In this document: positions 56,260-64,000 of the stretch, piece by piece | Layout of the letters: each line of letters begins with the position of its first letter | Position numbering within the stretch: the first letter of the stretch is position 1 | Assembly (NCBI GenBank): GCA_005809105.1 | Contig: SYLI01000018.1 | Location: 195-64,194, forward strand | From: Verrucomicrobiales bacterium | GTDB lineage: Bacteria; Verrucomicrobiota; Verrucomicrobiia; Limisphaerales; UBA1100 | Direction of reading: 5' to 3' | DNA length: 64,000 bases | Notes under the pieces: model-generated | What the model saw: only the letters and a program-made list of their open reading frames with translations | Database searches by the model: none | Told to the model about the DNA's origin: nothing | Made by a program: the position numbers and the translations under genes

Positions 56260-57285
56260 CTATTCCAGATTGAACTGGGCCGGCTTGAGATTCTGCTTGG
56301 GCCAGTAGTCGGCGGGCTTGAAGCCAAACATGCTGGGCTCAAACCGCCCCACCGGTTCCACGGCCGCCTTGGCCGGCACGTCCAGCCCCACGCACCAGTA
56401 CGCTGCGTTGACCAGCAGCCGCCGCGTTCCCTCCCACTTCATGTCCACCGCCGCCCCGGTGGTGGTGGCGAAGCTGCGGCCCTTCTTCCCGCCGGGAACC
56501 TGGTACGACTTGGTCCAGGCCACGGGCATCATGGGATCGTTCTTCTTGCCCGCCACAGGCGGGTCGTCAAATTTCATCCCTGCCACGACCTGTCCCAGCA
56601 GCAGCGGCTTGCTGTCACCGGGCAGGGGCAGGCGCACGCCGTACACGTCCGAAAGCGCGAACACGTCGCCCTCGCCAATGCTCTTGAGCACCGGATGCTC
56701 CTTCGCCCCGGGCGCGAGGATGCCGCGCGCTGCTTCCCGGGCATGCGCGCCGTGGTGGTTGATCCATTGCTCGCCCAGCACCAGCCGTCCGAATCCATCG
56801 GCCCACTCTTTCTTCGGGCCCTTGTACCCGTTGCCGTAATGCGCCCACGGTTTGTTGCCGGCGATGTTGAAGGCGTGCGTGGCCGTGCGCAGGCCCATCA
56901 CCGGCCTGCCGGACTTCAGATACTCGTCAACGTGCGCCATCTGCTCGTCGGGCAGGTCGCGGAATCGCGTGGCGATCACCATGAGGTCGGCCGTGCGCAG
57001 GGCCGCCAGACCGGGGATGTTGCGGTTATTGTTGGGGTTGATCAATCCCGTGGCATCGTCGATCGCGAAGAGCACGGTGCATTTGAATCCATGCCGCACC
57101 GAAAGAATCTTGCCCAGTTGAGGGAGCGCCTCCTCCGACCGGTATTCCTCATCGCCCGAAATCAGGACCACATGCTTGCCAGCACCCGGCCCACCCTTGC
57201 CTTCGTACACCACCCACGGGTCGGCGGCACGGGCGGCGAAACCAAGGCCTAGAAACAGGGTCGTGGAAATGAGGAGACGTTTCAT
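56260..57285 (-). CDS. ThuA-domain protein, secreted
   Basis: Signal peptide. HVVLISGDEEYRSEE ... PVAWT pattern of ThuA-like class I glutamine-amidotransferase-fold proteins. Confidence 0.7.
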   Translation of the reverse strand: MKRLLISTTLFLGLGFAARAADPWVVYEGKGGPGAGKHVVLISGDEEYRSEEALPQLGKILSVRHGFKCTVLFAIDDATGLINPNNNRNIPGLAALRTADLMVIATRFRDLPDEQMAHVDEYLKSGRPVMGLRTATHAFNIAGNKPWAHYGNGYKGPKKEWADGFGRLVLGEQWINHHGAHAREAARGILAPGAKEHPVLKSIGEGDVFALSDVYGVRLPLPGDSKPLLLGQVVAGMKFDDPPVAGKKNDPMMPVAWTKSYQVPGGKKGRSFATTTGAAVDMKWEGTRRLLVNAAYWCVGLDVPAKAAVEPVGRFEPSMFGFKPADYWPKQNLKPAQFNLE

Positions 57286-57369
57286 GTTGCAAGACTTGTT
57301 GGCGCGGAGGTTGATGCGGGAATCTTAGTGGGAACCTCAGCCGATGCAAACCATGAATGAGGCTGCCGC

Positions 57370-57885
57370 GTGAAGACCCTAGTCCTGGTGCGCCATGCCA
57401 AGTCCAGCTGGGCCGACGGGGCGCAGGACGACCACGACCGGCCGCTGAACGAACGCGGTTTGCGCGATGCCCCGCGCATGGCGAAGCGACTGGCGGCACG
57501 CCCGCCTCACCCCGACGCCATCGTTTCCAGCACCGCGCGCCGCGCGCGCGACACGGCGGCCGCCTTCGCCGCCGCGCTGGGAGCGGGCCCTGCGGCCTTC
57601 CGTCTGGAAGCGGCGCTCTACCACGCCGCGCCGCAGGAGGCGCTGGCCCTCATCGCCGGTTTTCCCGATTCATGGGAGAGCGCGGTGTGCGTGGGCCACA
57701 ATCCCGGCCTCACAGCGCTGGCTGCCGGGGTGTTTGGCGCGCCTGTTGAACACATGCCCACGGGCAGCGTGGTGCGCCTTTGGTTCGACACGCGATGCTG
57801 GAGCCAGGTGCCGCACTCGCGGCCGCTTCGCGGCGACTTTGATTGGCCCAAGAATGAGAGCACGGATCCGCGTCCGTGGCCGTGA
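57370..57885 (+). CDS. Histidine phosphatase family protein (SixA-like)
   Basis: GTG start. LVLVRHAKSSW (RHA catalytic motif), RPLNERG, and a later VGHNPG block. Confidence 0.75.
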   Translation: MKTLVLVRHAKSSWADGAQDDHDRPLNERGLRDAPRMAKRLAARPPHPDAIVSSTARRARDTAAAFAAALGAGPAAFRLEAALYHAAPQEALALIAGFPDSWESAVCVGHNPGLTALAAGVFGAPVEHMPTGSVVRLWFDTRCWSQVPHSRPLRGDFDWPKNESTDPRPWP

Positions 57886-57913
57886 TGACGACGCGCGGAT
57901 GCGAAAGAGGAAG

Positions 57914-59272
57914 CTAGGGCAGCTGCAGGGGGATGCGGCCGGGCCTGGGGAACGGATTGGCCCCCGCCTTCGTGGGATCGAGCATCACCTCGAGCCTCTG
58001 ATGCACCATGTCCATGCCGCGATGCAGAAACTGGTCGGCCGTCTTGGCGCGCATCTCCTTGAGCAGCGACTGGCGGTTGCGCACCGCGTCGGCAGGCAGG
58101 CTCTCGCCCGCGGCCAGCGACATCATGGGCTGCCACATGCCGCCGTACTTGGTCAGGCCAAACTCCTTGCTTTCATTGGAACTCTTGATGCCCTCTTCCA
58201 TCACCTCGCGGAAAATTTCGTCGGACTGCGCGTTCATTCCCACGTATTTGAGCGTGGCATCGCGCAGGATGATGCGGTCGCCCGGATTGGTGATGGCCGG
58301 GTTGCGATAGGCTTGGATGAGCAGCGGCATGGCCCGCTCGCCCAGGGTTTCATTGATGAAACGCAGCGCGGCGCCGTCGAGCCGGCCCTCCTTGCTGACC
58401 AGGATGCGCTTGGCGAATTCCAGCAGGGCCGGGTCCTTGTGTTTCTGGAGGAAGGCGAAAAGCAACCGGCGCGAGGTGTCGTCCAGCGGCTCCTTGGCCA
58501 GCTCGCGCGCGGCGTTGAGCAGCCGCTCCTTGTGCGCCCCGGGACGCAGCGCTTCGAGCATTTGTGCCAGATGAACCACCTCGATGCCGCGACCGGTGCG
58601 GTCTAGTTCGGCGAGCAGGATGGCCTCGGCGGCGTCTCCGCCGATGTCGCGCAGCGCCTCAAAGAGACCCAGCCGCAGCGACGGCGGCAGGACGGTCTTG
58701 AAATCGGGCAGGTGATATGCGCCGTAGTCGCGCAGGGAACTCAAGTCCACGTTCTCGCCGACGTTGAGAAACCGGCGCGCGTCCCCCTGCTGCTGCTGCC
58801 AGTCGCCCGCCTTCTGGTATTCAATGTCCTGATCCTCTTTTAGAAATGCCTCGATGTCGGGCAGCGCGACCGCGCCCATCTGGGTCAGGCTGGCGAAAAG
58901 GTGGATCACCTGCCGCTGCTCACGGATTCGGTCAGCACCGGAGGGGTCCACCTTCTTGAGTTTTTCCAGCACCGTCTTGGGCACCGGGCGATGGGTTTCG
59001 AGGGTGGTTTGAGCGGCGGCCAGTTGGGTGCGCAGGCGTTCGGCCTCCTGCTCCCTCTGCGTGGCCTCCGTCGTGGCGGCCGCCAGGCGCTTCAAGTCGG
59101 CGGCGTGCTGTTGATCCTTCGACTGGGACTGCTCTCGCGCGGCAGCCTCGTGCGAGGTCGTCAGCTGGCGCGCCACGGCGTCCTGGCGTTTCGATTGCAC
59201 CGTCCAGACAAGGAGGCCGGTGGTGGCGGCGCCCAAGAGCGCGGCGATGATGAGGGTCAGGAATTGTTTCAT
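57914..59272 (-). CDS. Membrane-anchored coiled-coil/helical-repeat protein (hypothetical), paralog A
   Basis: Start at ATG 59272 (MKQFLTLIIAALLGAATTGLLVW TM anchor). Gln/Ala/Arg-rich coiled coil followed by a ~330-aa helical repeat region. Clear similarity to 59280..60590. Confidence 0.55.
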   Translation of the reverse strand: MKQFLTLIIAALLGAATTGLLVWTVQSKRQDAVARQLTTSHEAAAREQSQSKDQQHAADLKRLAAATTEATQREQEAERLRTQLAAAQTTLETHRPVPKTVLEKLKKVDPSGADRIREQRQVIHLFASLTQMGAVALPDIEAFLKEDQDIEYQKAGDWQQQQGDARRFLNVGENVDLSSLRDYGAYHLPDFKTVLPPSLRLGLFEALRDIGGDAAEAILLAELDRTGRGIEVVHLAQMLEALRPGAHKERLLNAARELAKEPLDDTSRRLLFAFLQKHKDPALLEFAKRILVSKEGRLDGAALRFINETLGERAMPLLIQAYRNPAITNPGDRIILRDATLKYVGMNAQSDEIFREVMEEGIKSSNESKEFGLTKYGGMWQPMMSLAAGESLPADAVRNRQSLLKEMRAKTADQFLHRGMDMVHQRLEVMLDPTKAGANPFPRPGRIPLQLP

Positions 59273-59279
59273 GGCAGGG

Positions 59280-60590
59280 TCAGTTGGGGGGCGTGGCGGC
59301 CTTCCCCCGTTTTTCCTCAAGCTCGGCCATGCGCCGGTCCATGGCCGTCAATCCGAACTGCAGCAGCAGATCCGAGGATTCCTTTCGCACCTCGCCCAGC
59401 AGTTTGCGCCGGGCCTTGATCAGCTCCGCGGGTTGGTCCTCCAGATCGCGCGCCAGGCTGCCAATGGGCTGGAAGAGATTTTCGTAGCGCTTGAAGTCCA
59501 TCAAATCCTTGCCCTTCATGTCGCGCACGCCTTCGCGCACCATCTCACGGAACATTTCATCGGCGTGCTCGTTGATGCCGATGTAGCGTAGCGCGGCATC
59601 ACGGATGGCTGCCTTCTCCATCGGGTCGGTGACGCGCGGATCCTTGTAGGCCGCCAGCAGCGTGGGCATGGCACCTTCGCCCAGCACCTGCCGCAGATAG
59701 GCCAGCGCGTAGCCGTCGAGTTTGCCGGAGGCGCTGATGAGAATCCGCTTGGCCGTCTCCACGAAAACGAGGTCTTGGTACTTGATCAGAATGGCGTAGA
59801 GATAGCCGGCCGAGCGCTGGTCAAGCGCGCTGGCATCCTCGGCGGGTGGCGGGTTGGCGAGGATTTCGCGTGTCGCCTTGAGAATGTCGTCGCGGTGCCG
59901 CCCCGGGGAAAGTTCTTCTAGCAAGAGATCGAGGTACGCCACCTCCACACCGCGCGCCGTTTGGGCCAGTACTTCGCTCAGAATGGTATCCGCCTCAGGG
60001 CCGCCGATGTGGGCCACCACTTCCAAGAGGCCCAACCTCAGCGTGGGAGGGAACTGATTCTCAGGCTTGGGCAGGGGTTGAAAGTAGTTCCCGAAGGCGC
60101 CCGTGCGCATCTGGCGCCGGCGCATCTCCTCCTCATTGCGGGGCGGCGGTTCGGGGGCCGGTGGAGGGAGGTATTCGAGGTCGGCCGCCAGCGAGAGGAA
60201 TTGCTGGATGGCCGGCAGGGCGGCCGGCCCCAGATCCACCAGCGATTCCAGCCCGTGCACCGCGCGGCGCTTGGTGCGGCGGTCGGCGGGGTCAAGTTTC
60301 TGAAGCTGTTCGAGAATCTGCGCGGGCGTCGGCCGTGGGGTGGGTTGCAGAGCGGCGTCGCTGGAGTTGGTGGCCGCAGCGTCCGGGCGTTGCGCGTCGG
60401 CCAGTTTGCGCGCCAGTTCGCTCGACCGCTCCTGTCCCGCGCGCCGTTGCTGCGCCAGTTGCTCGCCAAAGGCCGCCTCCTGTTGCCGCAGTGCGGCTCC
60501 CTGCCTTCGCGTGAGACTGTCACGCACCATCAAGCCGCAGGCCAGCGCACCCAGCACCGCCGCCATGAGGAGGTAGAGCAGGCGCTTCAT
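59280..60590 (-). CDS. Membrane-anchored coiled-coil/helical-repeat protein (hypothetical), paralog B
   Basis: MKRLLYLLMAAVLGALACGLMV anchor and the same architecture as paralog A (for example LEVVAHIGGPEADTILSEVL vs FEALRDIGGDAAEAILLAEL). ATGA overlap with the upstream gene. Confidence 0.55.
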   Translation of the reverse strand: MKRLLYLLMAAVLGALACGLMVRDSLTRRQGAALRQQEAAFGEQLAQQRRAGQERSSELARKLADAQRPDAAATNSSDAALQPTPRPTPAQILEQLQKLDPADRRTKRRAVHGLESLVDLGPAALPAIQQFLSLAADLEYLPPPAPEPPPRNEEEMRRRQMRTGAFGNYFQPLPKPENQFPPTLRLGLLEVVAHIGGPEADTILSEVLAQTARGVEVAYLDLLLEELSPGRHRDDILKATREILANPPPAEDASALDQRSAGYLYAILIKYQDLVFVETAKRILISASGKLDGYALAYLRQVLGEGAMPTLLAAYKDPRVTDPMEKAAIRDAALRYIGINEHADEMFREMVREGVRDMKGKDLMDFKRYENLFQPIGSLARDLEDQPAELIKARRKLLGEVRKESSDLLLQFGLTAMDRRMAELEEKRGKAATPPN

Positions 60591-62128
60591 GGGGCCGAGG
60601 GTGGCGGATTGCCTGGGGTAAGCCAGCGGTTTCGGCCGGCCTCAAGCTCGCTGCCATCGAGCACGCCGTCGCGGTTGGAATCCAGCCGGGCGAAGAGCGG
60701 CGTCAGCCAACCGGGTGCTTCGTCCCGCGCCAGTTTGCCGTCGCGATTCCGGTCATTGGCACGAAGCAGGCCGGCGACCAACTGTCCTCCGCCCCCGGCA
60801 GCGGCACGCGTCGCGCTGCTCTTTAACACCTGCCGTGCATGATCCTGCTGCGACTTCTCTAATGTGGCCTGGTCATCGCGGTCCTTGACCTTCACCATGA
60901 GGGTGATAGCGCCCATCTCATCCTCCGATTGCGGCCCCCAACGCACCCGGCGCGGAGGGTGGCTGGGATTGCGCGGGTTGGCAGCCGAGTTATCCCAAGT
61001 GAGCTTCACCGAGAGGCGCGTGCCTTGGGGCAGCGAAACAAATTTCTGGAAGTCGTACTGCTCCTGCCATGAGAAGTCCCAGTGGTCGATGCCGACAAGT
61101 TTCCTGACCGTGCCATCGGGCAGCGTGGCGGTCATTTCCAGCGTGCGACCGATGTAGTGCATGTGACCGCTGATGCCAAAAGCCTCCACGGCGACGGGCA
61201 TCTCAAACGTGTCGGTGACGGTGTATTTGTCGGCGCCGGCGGGGATGTCCACGGCGGAGAGAGCGCCAAACGCCGGAGGCAGCTGCAGGGCGGTGAACAC
61301 CGACCGGGGAGCTTCCTTGGCGAAGTAGATGCCGACGGTCGACTGTTCGGACTCCGCTTTGCCCGTCGGGTGGAAATGGGTGGAGAGCACCAGGTCCGAT
61401 CCGCGCGGCACGCGATACGCCATGCCCTCGGGAAGCGTTCGCGGTGTCGCGCCGACCGCCCAGCCCCCAAGGGGGCCGACGCCGTTCTGATTGCGCAGCA
61501 TGCCGCGAAATCCAATCTGCCCTGCGACCCCATCCATGCCCTTGGCCATGCCCGTGCTGTCATAATAAAAAAGCGAGTGATGCACCACGCGGGGCGCGCT
61601 GGGGCGAAATTCGATGGCCTTCACCCAGCGATCCTCCGCCAGATTTAGTGGCAGGGTGAAGAGCCGATACTGGTCGCGGCCCTCGGCGGGGATCGCGTGC
61701 GGCTTTCTCATCTTGACGACGAGATCGGGCTGGCCCAGCTGCCAACCCGCGGTGAACCGGGGCAGGGGCGGCAGTTTGGTCGCGTCGCCTTCGGCCATGC
61801 CCTCGCGAACCCACTTTGCCAGTAGTTCAATCTGCGCTGGATTCAGGCGCCGGTCATTCTCAAAGGCAAAGTCGCCGGAGGTGGCGTGCCAAGGGGGCAT
61901 CTGGCGCGAGGCCGTGACCTTGGCGATCTGCTCGCCGCGCTTGGCGATGTCGCGATAGTTTTCCAAGGTGAAGGGGGCGGCCTCGCCCGCGCGGTGGCAG
62001 CCGCTGCAACTCTTGAAAATGATGGGCGCGATGTGCTCGCTAAAGGTCACGGGGGCGGCACCCAAAACGGGGACTGCTGCGCCAAATGCGGCAAGAACTA
62101 AGCAAAGGCTTCGGAGTAGGCGATTCAT
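60587..62128 (-). CDS. Secreted cytochrome c-like (CxxCH) + copper type II ascorbate-dependent monooxygenase-like + EF-hand protein
   Basis: Signal peptide. IAPIIFKSCSGCH (planctomycete-type cytochrome c motif). VVHHSLFY, HFHPTG and GHMHYIGR...M (PHM/DBH-like CuH/CuM ligand pattern). C-terminal DRNRDGKLARDE and DSNRDGVLDGSE EF-hand loops. Confidence 0.7.
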   Translation of the reverse strand: MNRLLRSLCLVLAAFGAAVPVLGAAPVTFSEHIAPIIFKSCSGCHRAGEAAPFTLENYRDIAKRGEQIAKVTASRQMPPWHATSGDFAFENDRRLNPAQIELLAKWVREGMAEGDATKLPPLPRFTAGWQLGQPDLVVKMRKPHAIPAEGRDQYRLFTLPLNLAEDRWVKAIEFRPSAPRVVHHSLFYYDSTGMAKGMDGVAGQIGFRGMLRNQNGVGPLGGWAVGATPRTLPEGMAYRVPRGSDLVLSTHFHPTGKAESEQSTVGIYFAKEAPRSVFTALQLPPAFGALSAVDIPAGADKYTVTDTFEMPVAVEAFGISGHMHYIGRTLEMTATLPDGTVRKLVGIDHWDFSWQEQYDFQKFVSLPQGTRLSVKLTWDNSAANPRNPSHPPRRVRWGPQSEDEMGAITLMVKVKDRDDQATLEKSQQDHARQVLKSSATRAAAGGGGQLVAGLLRANDRNRDGKLARDEAPGWLTPLFARLDSNRDGVLDGSELEAGRNRWLTPGNPPPSAP

Positions 62129-62134
62129 CTTGGG

Positions 62135-62746
62135 CTATGGATTGGGCAACGGCACGATGGGACATCCGACGGCCGCGGGCCAGGGGCGGTCGTGCGCCCG
62201 ATTGGCAAGCACGGCCTGCAATGCTTGCCTCAGGTCGTGGCGGGTGACGGTCGTGCGCGGTTTGTCGAGCGCTTCGTAGAGGTTGTTAATCCGGCCGCGA
62301 TACACAACGTGTCCCGCAGCGGTGACCACCACAGCTTCGGGAGCGGTGGCGGCACCGGTGGCGTGAACCAGCGTGTGCGTCCGGTCGTGAAAGGCGCGCA
62401 GCGCGCCCAAGCCAAATTCCGCGCCGTGCAGGCGCAGGTCTTCCGGCAGTGCGTCGGGGTCGGGGTACACCACAATGCAGCGGACACCCTTGGGCGCGAA
62501 ATCCCGGGCGATGCGTCCCATCTCAGGCGCGAGCCGGTTGGACACCGGGCAGTCGTGCGCGAGAAAAAACAACACGGTTGCGTTGGAGTCCTTTCCTCCG
62601 AAGGGGCGAACCACCTTTCCCGATAGGTCCGTGGCCTCGATGCGCAGGTCAACGTCGCGGGGTGTGGGCTCGGCGGCGGGAGATGCCCCACGGATCGACA
62701 GGCAGAGCATCAATACAAGGCGCAACATTTTCGGGACGGCCACCAT
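62135..62746 (-). CDS. Thioredoxin-fold redoxin-like protein with a monothiol CPVS motif
   Basis: Signal peptide. LFFLAHDCPVSNR at the position of the CxxC motif. C-terminal VGCPIV. The start is ATG 62746 or 62728. Ends 6 nt upstream of the monooxygenase-like gene. Confidence 0.6.
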   Translation of the reverse strand: MVAVPKMLRLVLMLCLSIRGASPAAEPTPRDVDLRIEATDLSGKVVRPFGGKDSNATVLFFLAHDCPVSNRLAPEMGRIARDFAPKGVRCIVVYPDPDALPEDLRLHGAEFGLGALRAFHDRTHTLVHATGAATAPEAVVVTAAGHVVYRGRINNLYEALDKPRTTVTRHDLRQALQAVLANRAHDRPWPAAVGCPIVPLPNP

Positions 62747-62819
62747 GATACCATACGGGCGAATGCTTCGCCAAGTTACACCAGCCGCACGCGGACTTTT
62801 CCACCGTAGGGAAGCGGCC

Positions 62820-63839
62820 CTAGCGCGGTTTGCGTCCGATGAGCGTTTCGGCAATCTGCACAGCATTAAGCGCAGCACCTTTGAGCAGCTGGTCGCCCGC
62901 CACCCAGAAGCAAAGGCCATTCTTCATCGCGCAATCCAGTCGCAACCGGCCCACGGCGCAGTGGTCGCGCCCCGCCACGGCAAGCGGCATGGGGTACTCA
63001 TTGCGGGAGGGGTCGTCCACCACGTCCAGCCCGGGTGCCGCTTGGAGCGCGCGTCGTGCCGCCGCCACGGAAACCGGCTTGCGAAACTGGGCGCTGACCG
63101 CCACCGAATGGGCGCGGTACACCGGCACGCGAACGCAGGTGATGCTGGCACGAAGGCCGGGGTGATGCATGATCTTGCGCCCCTCGTTTTGCAGCTTCAT
63201 CTCCTCGCGCGTATAGCCGTCGGGCAGGAAACTGTCGACGTGCGGCAGCACGTTGAAGGCGATCTGGTGCGGGTACACCTCGCGCGTGACGGGCTTGCGT
63301 GCGGCGACTTGCCCCACCTGCCGATCGAGTTCGGCGATGGCCTGGGCACCGGTGCCGGAGACGGCCTGATAGCTGGAGGCAAACACGTGCGTGACACCGA
63401 AGGCGCGGTGCAGCGGATAGAGCGCCATGAGCGTGATGGCCGTGGTGCAGTTGGGGTTCGCGATGATGCCGCGGTGGCGGTGCGCGTCGGCGGCGTTGAT
63501 TTCCGGCACCACCAGCGGCACCTCGGGGTCCAAGCGAAAGGCGCTGGAGTTGTCCACCACCACGCAGCCGGCCTTCACTGCCATTGGGGCAAACTCGCGC
63601 GAGATGTCGCCGCCGGCGCTGAAGAGTGCAAAGTCCACTCCCACGAAGGAGGCGGGGGTAAGCTCGCGCACCGTGACGCTGCGTCCGCCGAAGCGCACGC
63701 GTTTTCCCGCCGACCGACGGGAAGCCAGCGGCAAGAGCGTTCCCACCGGAAAGCGCCGCTCCTCGAGCACGCGCACCATCTCACTGCCGACCGCGCCAGT
63801 GACGCCCACGACCGCCACGGTGTACTTGGTTTTTTTCAT
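62820..63839 (-). CDS. asd: Aspartate-semialdehyde dehydrogenase
   Basis: VAVVGVTGAVG NAD(P) motif, NPNCTT active-site Cys block, SGAG and VPV...H motifs. Start at ATG 63839; the ORF extends to 63998. Confidence 0.9.
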   Translation of the reverse strand: MKKTKYTVAVVGVTGAVGSEMVRVLEERRFPVGTLLPLASRRSAGKRVRFGGRSVTVRELTPASFVGVDFALFSAGGDISREFAPMAVKAGCVVVDNSSAFRLDPEVPLVVPEINAADAHRHRGIIANPNCTTAITLMALYPLHRAFGVTHVFASSYQAVSGTGAQAIAELDRQVGQVAARKPVTREVYPHQIAFNVLPHVDSFLPDGYTREEMKLQNEGRKIMHHPGLRASITCVRVPVYRAHSVAVSAQFRKPVSVAAARRALQAAPGLDVVDDPSRNEYPMPLAVAGRDHCAVGRLRLDCAMKNGLCFWVAGDQLLKGAALNAVQIAETLIGRKPR

Positions 63840-63930
63840 CAAAGGGCCGCGGATGATAGCGGATGTTTTTGGGGTGTCAAATACATGAAATGACTGGCGA
63901 GAGGCCCGCCGCCGTGGTCTTCTCTCCGGC

Positions 63931-64000
63931 ATGGAGGTGAACGCGTGCATTCGTGCCGCGCGACGGGAGGACGTGCCGGGCATCCTCGCGGTGTACAACC
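63931..64000 (+). CDS. Probable GNAT N-acetyltransferase, 3'-truncated by the window end
   Basis: ATG 63931. MEVNACIRAARREDVPGILAVYN resembles the N-terminus of PAT/GNAT acetyltransferases. Only 23 codons are visible. Confidence 0.3.
   Translation, partial: MEVNACIRAARREDVPGILAVYN

Follow-up and report, generated by a model that had tools for sequence, protein, structure and literature searches.

We analysed a stretch of 64,000 nucleotides (the window) from contig SYLI01000018.1, positions 195 to 64,194, of a Verrucomicrobiales bacterium (GenBank assembly GCA_005809105.1), an organism represented solely by a metagenome-type assembly. Four minus-strand genes in the window, which we name g1 to g4, encode a thioredoxin-fold protein, a multidomain protein with a core resembling peptidylglycine alpha-hydroxylating monooxygenase (PHM) and dopamine beta-hydroxylase (DBH), and two paralogous helical-repeat proteins (Table 1). 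The genes are packed tightly, with 6 nucleotides between g1 and g2, a 4-nucleotide ATGA overlap between g2 and g3 at 60587-60590, and 7 nucleotides between g3 and g4, which matches exactly the packing described in an earlier sequence-only reading of this DNA. Comparably tight junctions occur in relative loci (L001, L002 and L021), and the start of g3 on the stop codon of g2 is also kept in L002.

Table 1. Coordinates of the genes and sequence features of the g1-g4 locus, numbered along the window.
Feature	Position	Strand	Description
g1	62135..62746	-	203 amino acids; alternative ATG at 62728; exported thioredoxin-fold partner protein
g2	60587..62128	-	513 amino acids; signal peptide, monohaem cytochrome c, PHM/DBH-like two-copper core and EF-hand tail; predicted exported fusion
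g3	59280..60590	-	436 amino acids; membrane anchor, stalk helix and ARM/HEAT-like alpha-solenoid
g4	57914..59272	-	452 amino acids; old g3 paralogue, architecture as g3
g2 haem c domain	61769..62047	-	residues ~28-120; CxxCH at 61994-62008; M77 in MPPW is the likely distal ligand
g2 PHM/DBH-like double beta-sandwich core	60884..61756	-	residues ~125-415; H183/H184, H251, H322/H324, M405
g2 EF-hand loop pair	60647..60754	-	D459-E470 and D483-E494
g1 active site C66-P-V-S69	62540-62551	-	from profile alignment to CxxC proteins
g1 invariant C195	62162-62164	-	from invariance in 63 partner redoxins
Promoter-like site	62745..62774	-	TTGGCG-18-TATCAT with TG, in the asd-g1 spacer; consensus match only

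Gene 2 Combines a Putative Cytochrome c with a PHM/DBH-like Core

Conservation in g2 was assessed over 30 homologues with 48-75% identity, and C41, C44, H45, M77, H183, H184, H251, H253, H322, H324 and M405 are invariant in all of them. A signal peptide can be read from the sequence. With a CxxCH motif, an invariant candidate for the distal Met and an export signal, the N-terminal part of g2 is predicted to be a c-type cytochrome domain; the CxxCH had already been picked out by the sequence-only reading, and the invariance of C41, C44 and H45 bears this out. The Pfam model Cytochrome_CBB3 gives g2 16 bits against a cut-off of 27 and matches 14 of the 30 homologues. The haem part of the g2 profile (~8-119) finds further matches at the N-terminal ends of three very large open reading frames (ORFs) of the genome (C17:10642-10977, C93:14418-14780 and C101:23366-23689; L009-L011), which are 843, 1705 and 1135 amino acids long, and this suggests that the monohaem module is common to other big secreted proteins of the organism.

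Downstream of the cytochrome part, g2 is ~17% identical to PHM. When aligned by phmmer and with the family profile, VHHS falls on VHHM, THFH on VHYG and HMHYIG on HTHHLG, which places H183/H184 and H251 on the histidines of the PHM CuH site and H322-x-H324 on the HxH of CuM. The Cu2_monoox_C model of Pfam is matched by 23 of the 30 homologues at E <= 0.01 (best 2e-5). An AlphaFold (AF2) model of g2 has a predicted local distance difference test score (pLDDT) of 83, and in a Foldseek search with this model the top 31 PDB matches are all PHM or DBH, with PHM 3mll at E 2e-12 (TM(target) 0.64, ~300 aligned columns) and DBH 4zel at E 2e-10. Of the PHM/DBH-like copper ligands that the sequence-only reading had proposed, the HH, H and HxH histidines align in the profile and fold searches, whereas the Met is reached only via an invariant motif.

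The tail of g2 carries two canonical EF-hand loops, DRNRDGKLARDE (459-470) and DSNRDGVLDGSE (483-494), in which the pattern DxNxDGxLxxxE occurs twice. The tail adopts a helix-loop-helix arrangement in the AF2 model, so that the two C-terminal loops noticed earlier are upheld by both sequence and model. EF-hand_5 of Pfam gives g2 21.2 bits against a cut-off of 25.9 and matches 15 of the 30 homologues; the number of loops among homologues is zero, one or two. We consider that the two loops most likely bind structural Ca2+ within a lineage-variable tail. More generally, the Pfam and NCBIfam matches of the window's own g1-g4 proteins all lie below gathering scores. Of the families that the sequence-only reading had proposed for annotation with hidden Markov models (Cu2_monooxygen, EF-hand and AhpC-TSA/redoxin), EF-hand and AhpC-TSA/Redoxin were recovered under these scores, and the copper family through its C-terminal model Cu2_monoox_C. 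Matches to UBact, XopAW, lanmodulin, TatA-like and FlgD models were rejected as low-complexity or EF-loop matches far under the cut-offs.

The g1-g2 Pair Is Found Across Phyla

Among 8,000 candidates scored, more than 2,200 are homologues of g2, nearly all labelled 'hypothetical' or 'cytochrome c', and a pattern scan of species genomes gives at least 587 confirmed stretches for the family. Genomes of the window's order often hold 2-8 g2-family genes. We surveyed 80 g2 loci from different GTDB species, taken from Verrucomicrobiota, Planctomycetota, Acidobacteriota, an Armatimonadota-type metagenome-assembled genome (MAG) and others; 77 of these had room for a neighbour. A g1-type redoxin lies directly next to g2 on the same strand at 62 of the 77 loci (56 upstream, 6 downstream). 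The redoxin and g2 are kept together in otherwise unrelated contexts in Opitutia, Acidobacteria and others, and in one genome of the order a single 626-amino acid ORF (L103) joins redoxin, cytochrome c and PHM core and keeps both Cys. As judged from this linkage, g1 and g2 are a real, conserved two-gene module present in four or more phyla, and it is the pair that is the conserved functional unit. The sequence-only reading had placed redoxin and DBH-like pairs in genomes of the Planctomycetota-Verrucomicrobiota-Chlamydiota group, and the survey finds them both there and beyond.

The other neighbours of g2 differ by lineage and include PQQ-like propellers and sulfatases. In four marine Verrucomicrobiales MAGs (L027, L029, L030 and L034), the closest EF-tailed homologues of g2 have no adjacent redoxin. 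At these loci, g2 is flanked on one or both sides by secreted proteins of ~440-470 amino acids that start with '...NWPQFRGPG...'; the neighbour at the equivalent place in L007 (L007:7620-9044) is a beta-propeller of the PQQ_2 type (Pfam). Such flanking proteins may be an alternative partner of g2. In Opitutia bacterium ISCC 51 (L004, CP076041.1:1910165-1923613), the redoxin and g2 pair sits among five sulfatase genes, which may be chance in a sulfatase-rich genome. Formylglycine generation can be copper-dependent, and this is of possible relevance to the sulfatase-embedded pair. The MAG records of four g2 loci of clearly verrucomicrobial or acidobacterial type (L023, L049, L056 and L072) are titled Akkermansia muciniphila, Heliomicrobium or Bifidobacterium and are probably mislabelled bins.

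Gene 1 Is a CxxS Thioredoxin-Fold Partner

Profile alignment of g1 to 2l5o (CPGC) and ResA (CKPC) places C66 on the first Cys of the CxxC motif and S69 on the second, in agreement with the sequence-only reading of CPVS as a monothiol site; g1 thus lacks the CxxC redox motif of TlpA/ResA-type oxidoreductases. In 63 partner redoxins taken from related g2 loci, C66, P67, N70, D121, P136, Y149-R150-G151 and G194-C195 are invariant, 61 of the 63 have H107, and position 69 is Ser in 36 and Ala in 27 and is never Cys. E137 is near-invariant in the subfamily. The second, C-terminal invariant Cys (C195) had been absent from the earlier reading. Against Pfam, g1 scores 24.8 with AhpC-TSA (cut-off 26) and 23.6 with Redoxin (cut-off 26.6); the orthologous redoxin domain of the fusion in L103 scores 43.8. 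A phmmer search of the PDB with g1 finds 2ywi at E 1e-12, and the family profile matches 2YWI, 3U5R and 2CVB over their full length (E 7.5e-20, 1.4e-13 and 2.1e-9). The alignment to 2ywi alone would make C66 the second Cys of a Prx-like CNHC (xxxC) motif. We rejected this assignment, as 2ywi has an extra upstream Cys and the profile alignment puts C66 first.

We envisage g1 as a dedicated, stoichiometric accessory of g2. Its CxxS/A motif would supply the nucleophilic Cys, and the protein also has the invariant Cys near its C-terminus and a His specific to the subfamily. Whether g1 is a thiol-redox partner, active in peroxide scavenging or reductive upkeep of the enzyme, is about an even call; here C66 would carry out the chemistry with C195 as the resolving Cys. 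A Sco-like Cu(I) loader, with a site formed from C66, C195 and H107, is possible but clearly less probable, and a substrate-related role takes the small share that is left.

Genes 3 and 4 Belong to an Order-Restricted Solenoid Family

The products of g3 and g4 are 36% identical over their full length (E 4e-80). In g3, an N-terminal membrane anchor (~4-23) is followed by a long stalk helix (to ~66) and an ARM/HEAT-like alpha-solenoid (~89-431); the model (pLDDT 84) shows a 65-residue N-terminal helix and then about 16 helices. Foldseek with this model returns only generic ARM/HEAT or designed-repeat matches (best E 1.8e-4, TM 0.2-0.4), a PDB sequence search with the g3 profile gives nothing below E 0.2, and neither protein has a Pfam family. 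A word-based search found 53 matches; with the full profile, 233 representative clusters are recovered at E <= 1e-30. The family occurs in one of 301 phylum-sampled genomes, the window's own, apart from two weak partial matches, and in 81 of 151 genomes of the order, often in several copies and with as many as 10 matches to the profile in one sister genome. By these profile counts, the family appears essentially restricted to one verrucomicrobial order, and it was previously unannotated.

In a maximum-likelihood tree, the first-position (g3-type) genes form one 100/100 clade, and the second-position genes fall in separate, well-supported clades. Orthologues of g3 and g4 are 42-77% identical. 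These clades and identities make the g3/g4 duplication old, so the description of the two as membrane-anchored helical-repeat paralogues without a Pfam family holds, and that part of it which called them recent-looking does not.

The window's 3-Mb genome has five g3-profile matches that correspond to four copies: g3, g4, a copy on contig 14 and a split copy. The split copy lies just past the window end and consists of an N-terminal transmembrane/coiled-coil half (C102:3-752, L018) and a minus-strand solenoid half (C106:64855-65601, L015:1348-2478) that carries a separate signal peptide and has a Gly-rich (GGFGG) tail. As the halves are on two contigs, the start of contig 102 should abut the end of contig 106. 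An opposite-strand GNAT gene lies between the split copy and asd, and the split pair is also kept in L002, L026, L032, L033, L054 and G413. The signal peptide on the detached half would place the solenoid in the periplasm, and g3 and g4 are probably inner-membrane-anchored, periplasmic alpha-solenoid proteins, as far as sequence features can tell. The contig 14 copy (G000:C14:81574-83208; L017:7574-9208, minus strand) is a 544-amino acid ORF on a very long tree branch; it overlaps a DUF4139 gene at that gene's end and is followed by a 493-amino acid ORF with no Pfam match, and this may be a second operon context. Other family members adjoin PSCyt/DUF1501 genes. Two distant members on unrelated metagenome contigs (L020:7001-8365 and L022:7001-8248) are divergent from sulfate-assimilation genes, namely, those for PAPS reductase (cysH), CysN/CysD-like proteins and sulfite reductase.

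Surroundings of the Locus

Upstream of g1, asd is also on the minus strand and ends at 62820, which leaves a spacer of 73 nucleotides; downstream, a SixA-like phosphatase gene is convergent with g4. A consensus scan found 2 promoter-like sites against 0.4 expected. The -10 element of the site in the asd-g1 spacer overlaps the ATG at 62746, which favours the ATG at 62728 as the start of g1. If the site is real, g1 begins at 62728 (MLRLVLMLCLS...) with a very short leader. No minus-strand terminator-like site was found within or after g2-g4; the scan gave two such sites on this strand, both inside g1, and their count is not above that in shuffled sequence. A search of 57000-64000 against Rfam gave no match.

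Relation of g3 and g4 to the Enzyme Pair

Homologues of g2 are found in 92 of the 151 genomes of the order. Counting strong g3-family matches, 40 genomes have both families, 13 have only the g3 family, 52 have only g2 and 46 have neither; G303, G424, G435 and G450 are examples with the g3 family but no g2. Only in the window's genome (G000) and in G337, which is from the same family, are the two genes adjacent. Elsewhere in the order they are on different contigs or, in G430, 176 kb apart. In the 80-locus survey, g3-family genes lie beside g2 at 6-7 loci, all from close relatives and all in one syntenic block. A tblastn search with the window's neighbouring genes shows the whole block to be syntenic in close relatives, in the order split paralogue, GNAT, asd, g1, g2, g3, g4, SixA, ThuA, WD40 and DUF1501. 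Since the entire neighbourhood from asd to DUF1501 is syntenic, finding the four genes kept together cannot be taken as independent evidence that they share a function. Single members also drop out: L021 has g1-g3-g4-SixA-ThuA without g2, L035 has g1-g2 and a single g4-type gene with the g3-type absent, and in G413 a full-length member of the family lies upstream of asd and the 2.4 kb downstream of g2 contain no g3-family gene. The sequence-only reading had proposed a single dedicated four-gene system, with conservation of the neighbourhood set beforehand as a test; the four genes were not found together outside closely syntenic relatives, and this part of the proposal is not supported.

Helical repeats recur with the enzyme in another form. 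Among the longer g2 paralogues sampled in the order, four of five carry TPR repeats at the C-terminus, where g2 has the EF tail (L104-L107, from G441, G309, G393 and G361; 580-695 amino acids; TPR Pfam E 1e-10 to 1e-21). These paralogues indicate that the enzyme family recurrently acquires alpha-helical repeat modules and raise a possible role for g3 and g4 as optional adaptors. By analogy, g3 and g4 may at most be optional membrane tethers or substrate adaptors, a role that we regard as possible but rate somewhat below even. We also considered g3 and g4 as diverged TPR tails and rejected this, because hhalign of g3 against the TPR tails gives no similarity (E 0.71).

Taken together, we favour with modest confidence the reading that the locus combines a widespread g1-g2 enzyme module with a clade-specific, non-core addition of g3 and g4; under the same joint grade, the layout suggests a single transcription unit made from two separable parts. 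This reading builds on direct observation of the gene layout, ligand conservation, fold, pair linkage, fusion and family distributions. Several points weigh against it. The sequence-level E-values between g2 and PHM are marginal (5e-3 with phmmer, 1e-3 with the profile), and it is the fold match of the AlphaFold model that resolves the PHM/DBH-like assignment. Cu2_monoox_C gives g2 17.8 bits against a cut-off of 23, and the model of the N-terminal domain has no match in g2. M405 (DEMG) is invariant, but the alignments do not reach Met314 of PHM, so the CuM Met is assigned from the DEM motif only. The charges flanking the g3 and g4 anchors leave the membrane topology unsettled. Finally, the ATGA overlap together with retention of g2-g3-g4 at ~50% g2 identity could mean a real complex, and g1-g3-g4 without g2 in L021 could mean that g3 and g4 work with g1 and not with g2.

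The best-surviving alternative, which we nevertheless find doubtful, is that g3 and g4 are unrelated to g1 and g2 and represent an expanding, lineage-specific envelope family that landed downstream of g2 in an ancestor and rides its promoter. The four copies in a 3-Mb genome fit this, as do the halves of the split copy just upstream of asd, the contig 14 copy beside a DUF4139 gene, the up to 10 matches in the sister genome, the members near PSCyt/DUF1501 or divergent from cysH/cysDN/sulfite reductase genes, and the weak phyletic association with g2 in the order (40/13/52/46). However, the overlap of the g3 start with the g2 stop, kept in L002, suggests selection for co-expression, and the TPR-tailed paralogues show that this enzyme family recruits helical-repeat modules.

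In an elaborated form of the sequence-only reading, g1-g4 would instead be one dedicated envelope system, in which a heterodimeric g3/g4 scaffold holds g2 (and g1) at the inner membrane and Ca2+ on the EF tail switches an oxidative modification or a signalling activity in the periplasm. Translational coupling through the ATGA overlap and the 7-nucleotide gap, the recurrence of helical-repeat modules as TPR fusions and the order g1-g2-g3-g4, kept in L001, L002/G337, L025, L026 and L031-L033 at only ~50-55% g2 identity, all speak for such a system, but what is conserved is an entire neighbourhood of 10 genes, asd among them, so that inheritance explains the linkage. A long tail of ~105 residues is present on all g3-linked g2 proteins; this EF-type tail is also found on g2 homologues without g3 and g4, and the canonical loops are not kept in all g3-linked proteins, with strict loops missing in L031-L033. 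The Ca-responsive part is a conjecture from the loop sequences. Adding the exceptions at L021, L035 and G413, and the order genomes with strong g3-family matches and no g2 (13), with g2 and no strong g3 (52) or with the two on separate contigs or 176 kb apart, we judge the scaffold and Ca2+ switch improbable, and an obligate four-part system equally so.

Proposed Activity

Within the favoured reading of a g1-g2 module with added g3 and g4, we infer the activity, the electron path, the localisation of g3 and g4 and any contact between g2 and g3/g4. We propose that g2 is exported to the periplasm, where a monohaem cytochrome c would be joined to a complete, non-coupled two-copper core of the PHM/DBH type. 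The protein would act as an O2-dependent C-H hydroxylase with the tethered haem c in place of ascorbate: the haem would draw electrons one at a time, either from a soluble cytochrome or from the respiratory chain, and hand them to CuH, and the O2 and substrate chemistry, that is, C-H hydroxylation, would take place at CuM. The substrate may be a peptide or a protein, which is a guess made because PHM acts on peptides and the paralogues carry peptide-binding TPR tails. Translational coupling of g3 and g4 to g2 would have arisen only in the window's family-level clade, and the two would not be core machinery. A PAL-like lyase partner was sought via NHL repeats; none is adjacent, and the five NHL-repeat ORFs of the genome are all off the window's contig.

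A more specific version, in which g3 and g4 serve as detachable substrate adaptors in trans, in the manner of the TPR tails, for haem-fed PHM-type hydroxylation or amidation of the C-termini or side chains of envelope or secreted proteins, with g1 as a thiol or copper maintenance factor, is in our view unlikely. Still less likely is that g2 is no hydroxylase, with the haem and PHM-like scaffold used for copper handling, oxidase electron transfer to O2 or peroxide chemistry and g1 as a thiol peroxidase: the neighbourhood offers no substrate clue and no adjacent PAL-like lyase (NHL-repeat ORFs being on other contigs only), the partners are redox proteins and the neighbours vary by lineage (PQQ-like propellers, sulfatases), but none of the six residues assigned to the two PHM copper sites varies across four or more phyla, as expected if full two-site monooxygenase chemistry is kept.

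The chemistry of PHM and DBH is treated as a eukaryotic, ascorbate-dependent speciality, and our literature search found no study of bacterial haem-fused PHM-like enzymes. The locus described here would join a very large bacterial family in which a predicted two-copper core comes with a haem c of its own and with a thioredoxin-fold protein as dedicated partner. Its addition is modest but useful, in that the window points to the two-gene pair, and not the four genes, as the conserved functional unit. It also delimits a family of anchored solenoid proteins that lacks annotation and is restricted to the order. The enzyme family appears to gain helical-repeat protein-binding modules repeatedly, as TPR in cis and as ARM/HEAT-like proteins in the operon, which hints at peptide or protein substrates. 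If the substrate-adaptor version is true, bacteria would have an ascorbate-independent counterpart to the amidation of peptides in animals.

Comparison with Known Systems

PHM (the catalytic core of PAM; 1PHM, 1OPM, 3MLL) and DBH (4ZEL) have the two-domain beta-sandwich fold in common with g2. The HH and H of CuH and the HxH of CuM align, and g2 has an invariant Met, within a DEM motif, at the place expected for the Met of CuM. A table in one review gives PHM and DBM as eukaryote-only cuproproteins (PMC7435645). Unlike PHM and DBH, g2 is bacterial and, as predicted, Sec-exported, has a monohaem cytochrome c fused N-terminally to the core, lacks DOMON and PAL domains, ends in an EF-hand tail or, in paralogues, a TPR tail, and has a dedicated thioredoxin-fold partner.

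The nearest structures to g1 are uncharacterised thioredoxin-fold proteins, 2YWI from Geobacillus, 3U5R from Sinorhizobium and 2CVB/2YWO from Thermus (TTHA0593), a group that we take to be the CDD entry 'PRX_like1'. Like this group, g1 has a single Cys at the first CxxC position followed by Pro, a YRG motif and a C-terminal 'GC'. In contrast to 2YWI, the g1 subfamily has an invariant N70 and near-invariant H107 and E137, is predicted to be exported and is tied or fused to the PHM-like enzyme. A functional analogy may be drawn with the Sco1/SenC copper chaperones, which have a thioredoxin fold with CxxxC and a His; g1 likewise has the fold, two Cys and one conserved His, beside the gene of a putative periplasmic cuproenzyme. 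However, g1 has CxxS/A and a distant C-terminal Cys rather than CxxxC, no window protein matches the Pfam SCO1-SenC family at E <= 0.1, and fusion to the client enzyme would be unusual for a chaperone.

The g3 model superposes weakly on many generic ARM/HEAT solenoids (importin-alpha, beta-catenin, designed armadillo, alphaRep), with no specific relative among them, and g3 and g4 differ from these in being bacterial, transmembrane-anchored by prediction and confined to one verrucomicrobial order. A further parallel is in the TPR-tailed g2 paralogues, which have the same cytochrome c and PHM-like core (E 1e-129 to 1e-149 to the g2 profile). There, the repeat module is covalent and of the TPR type, whereas the window has two separate, predicted membrane-anchored ARM/HEAT-like proteins.

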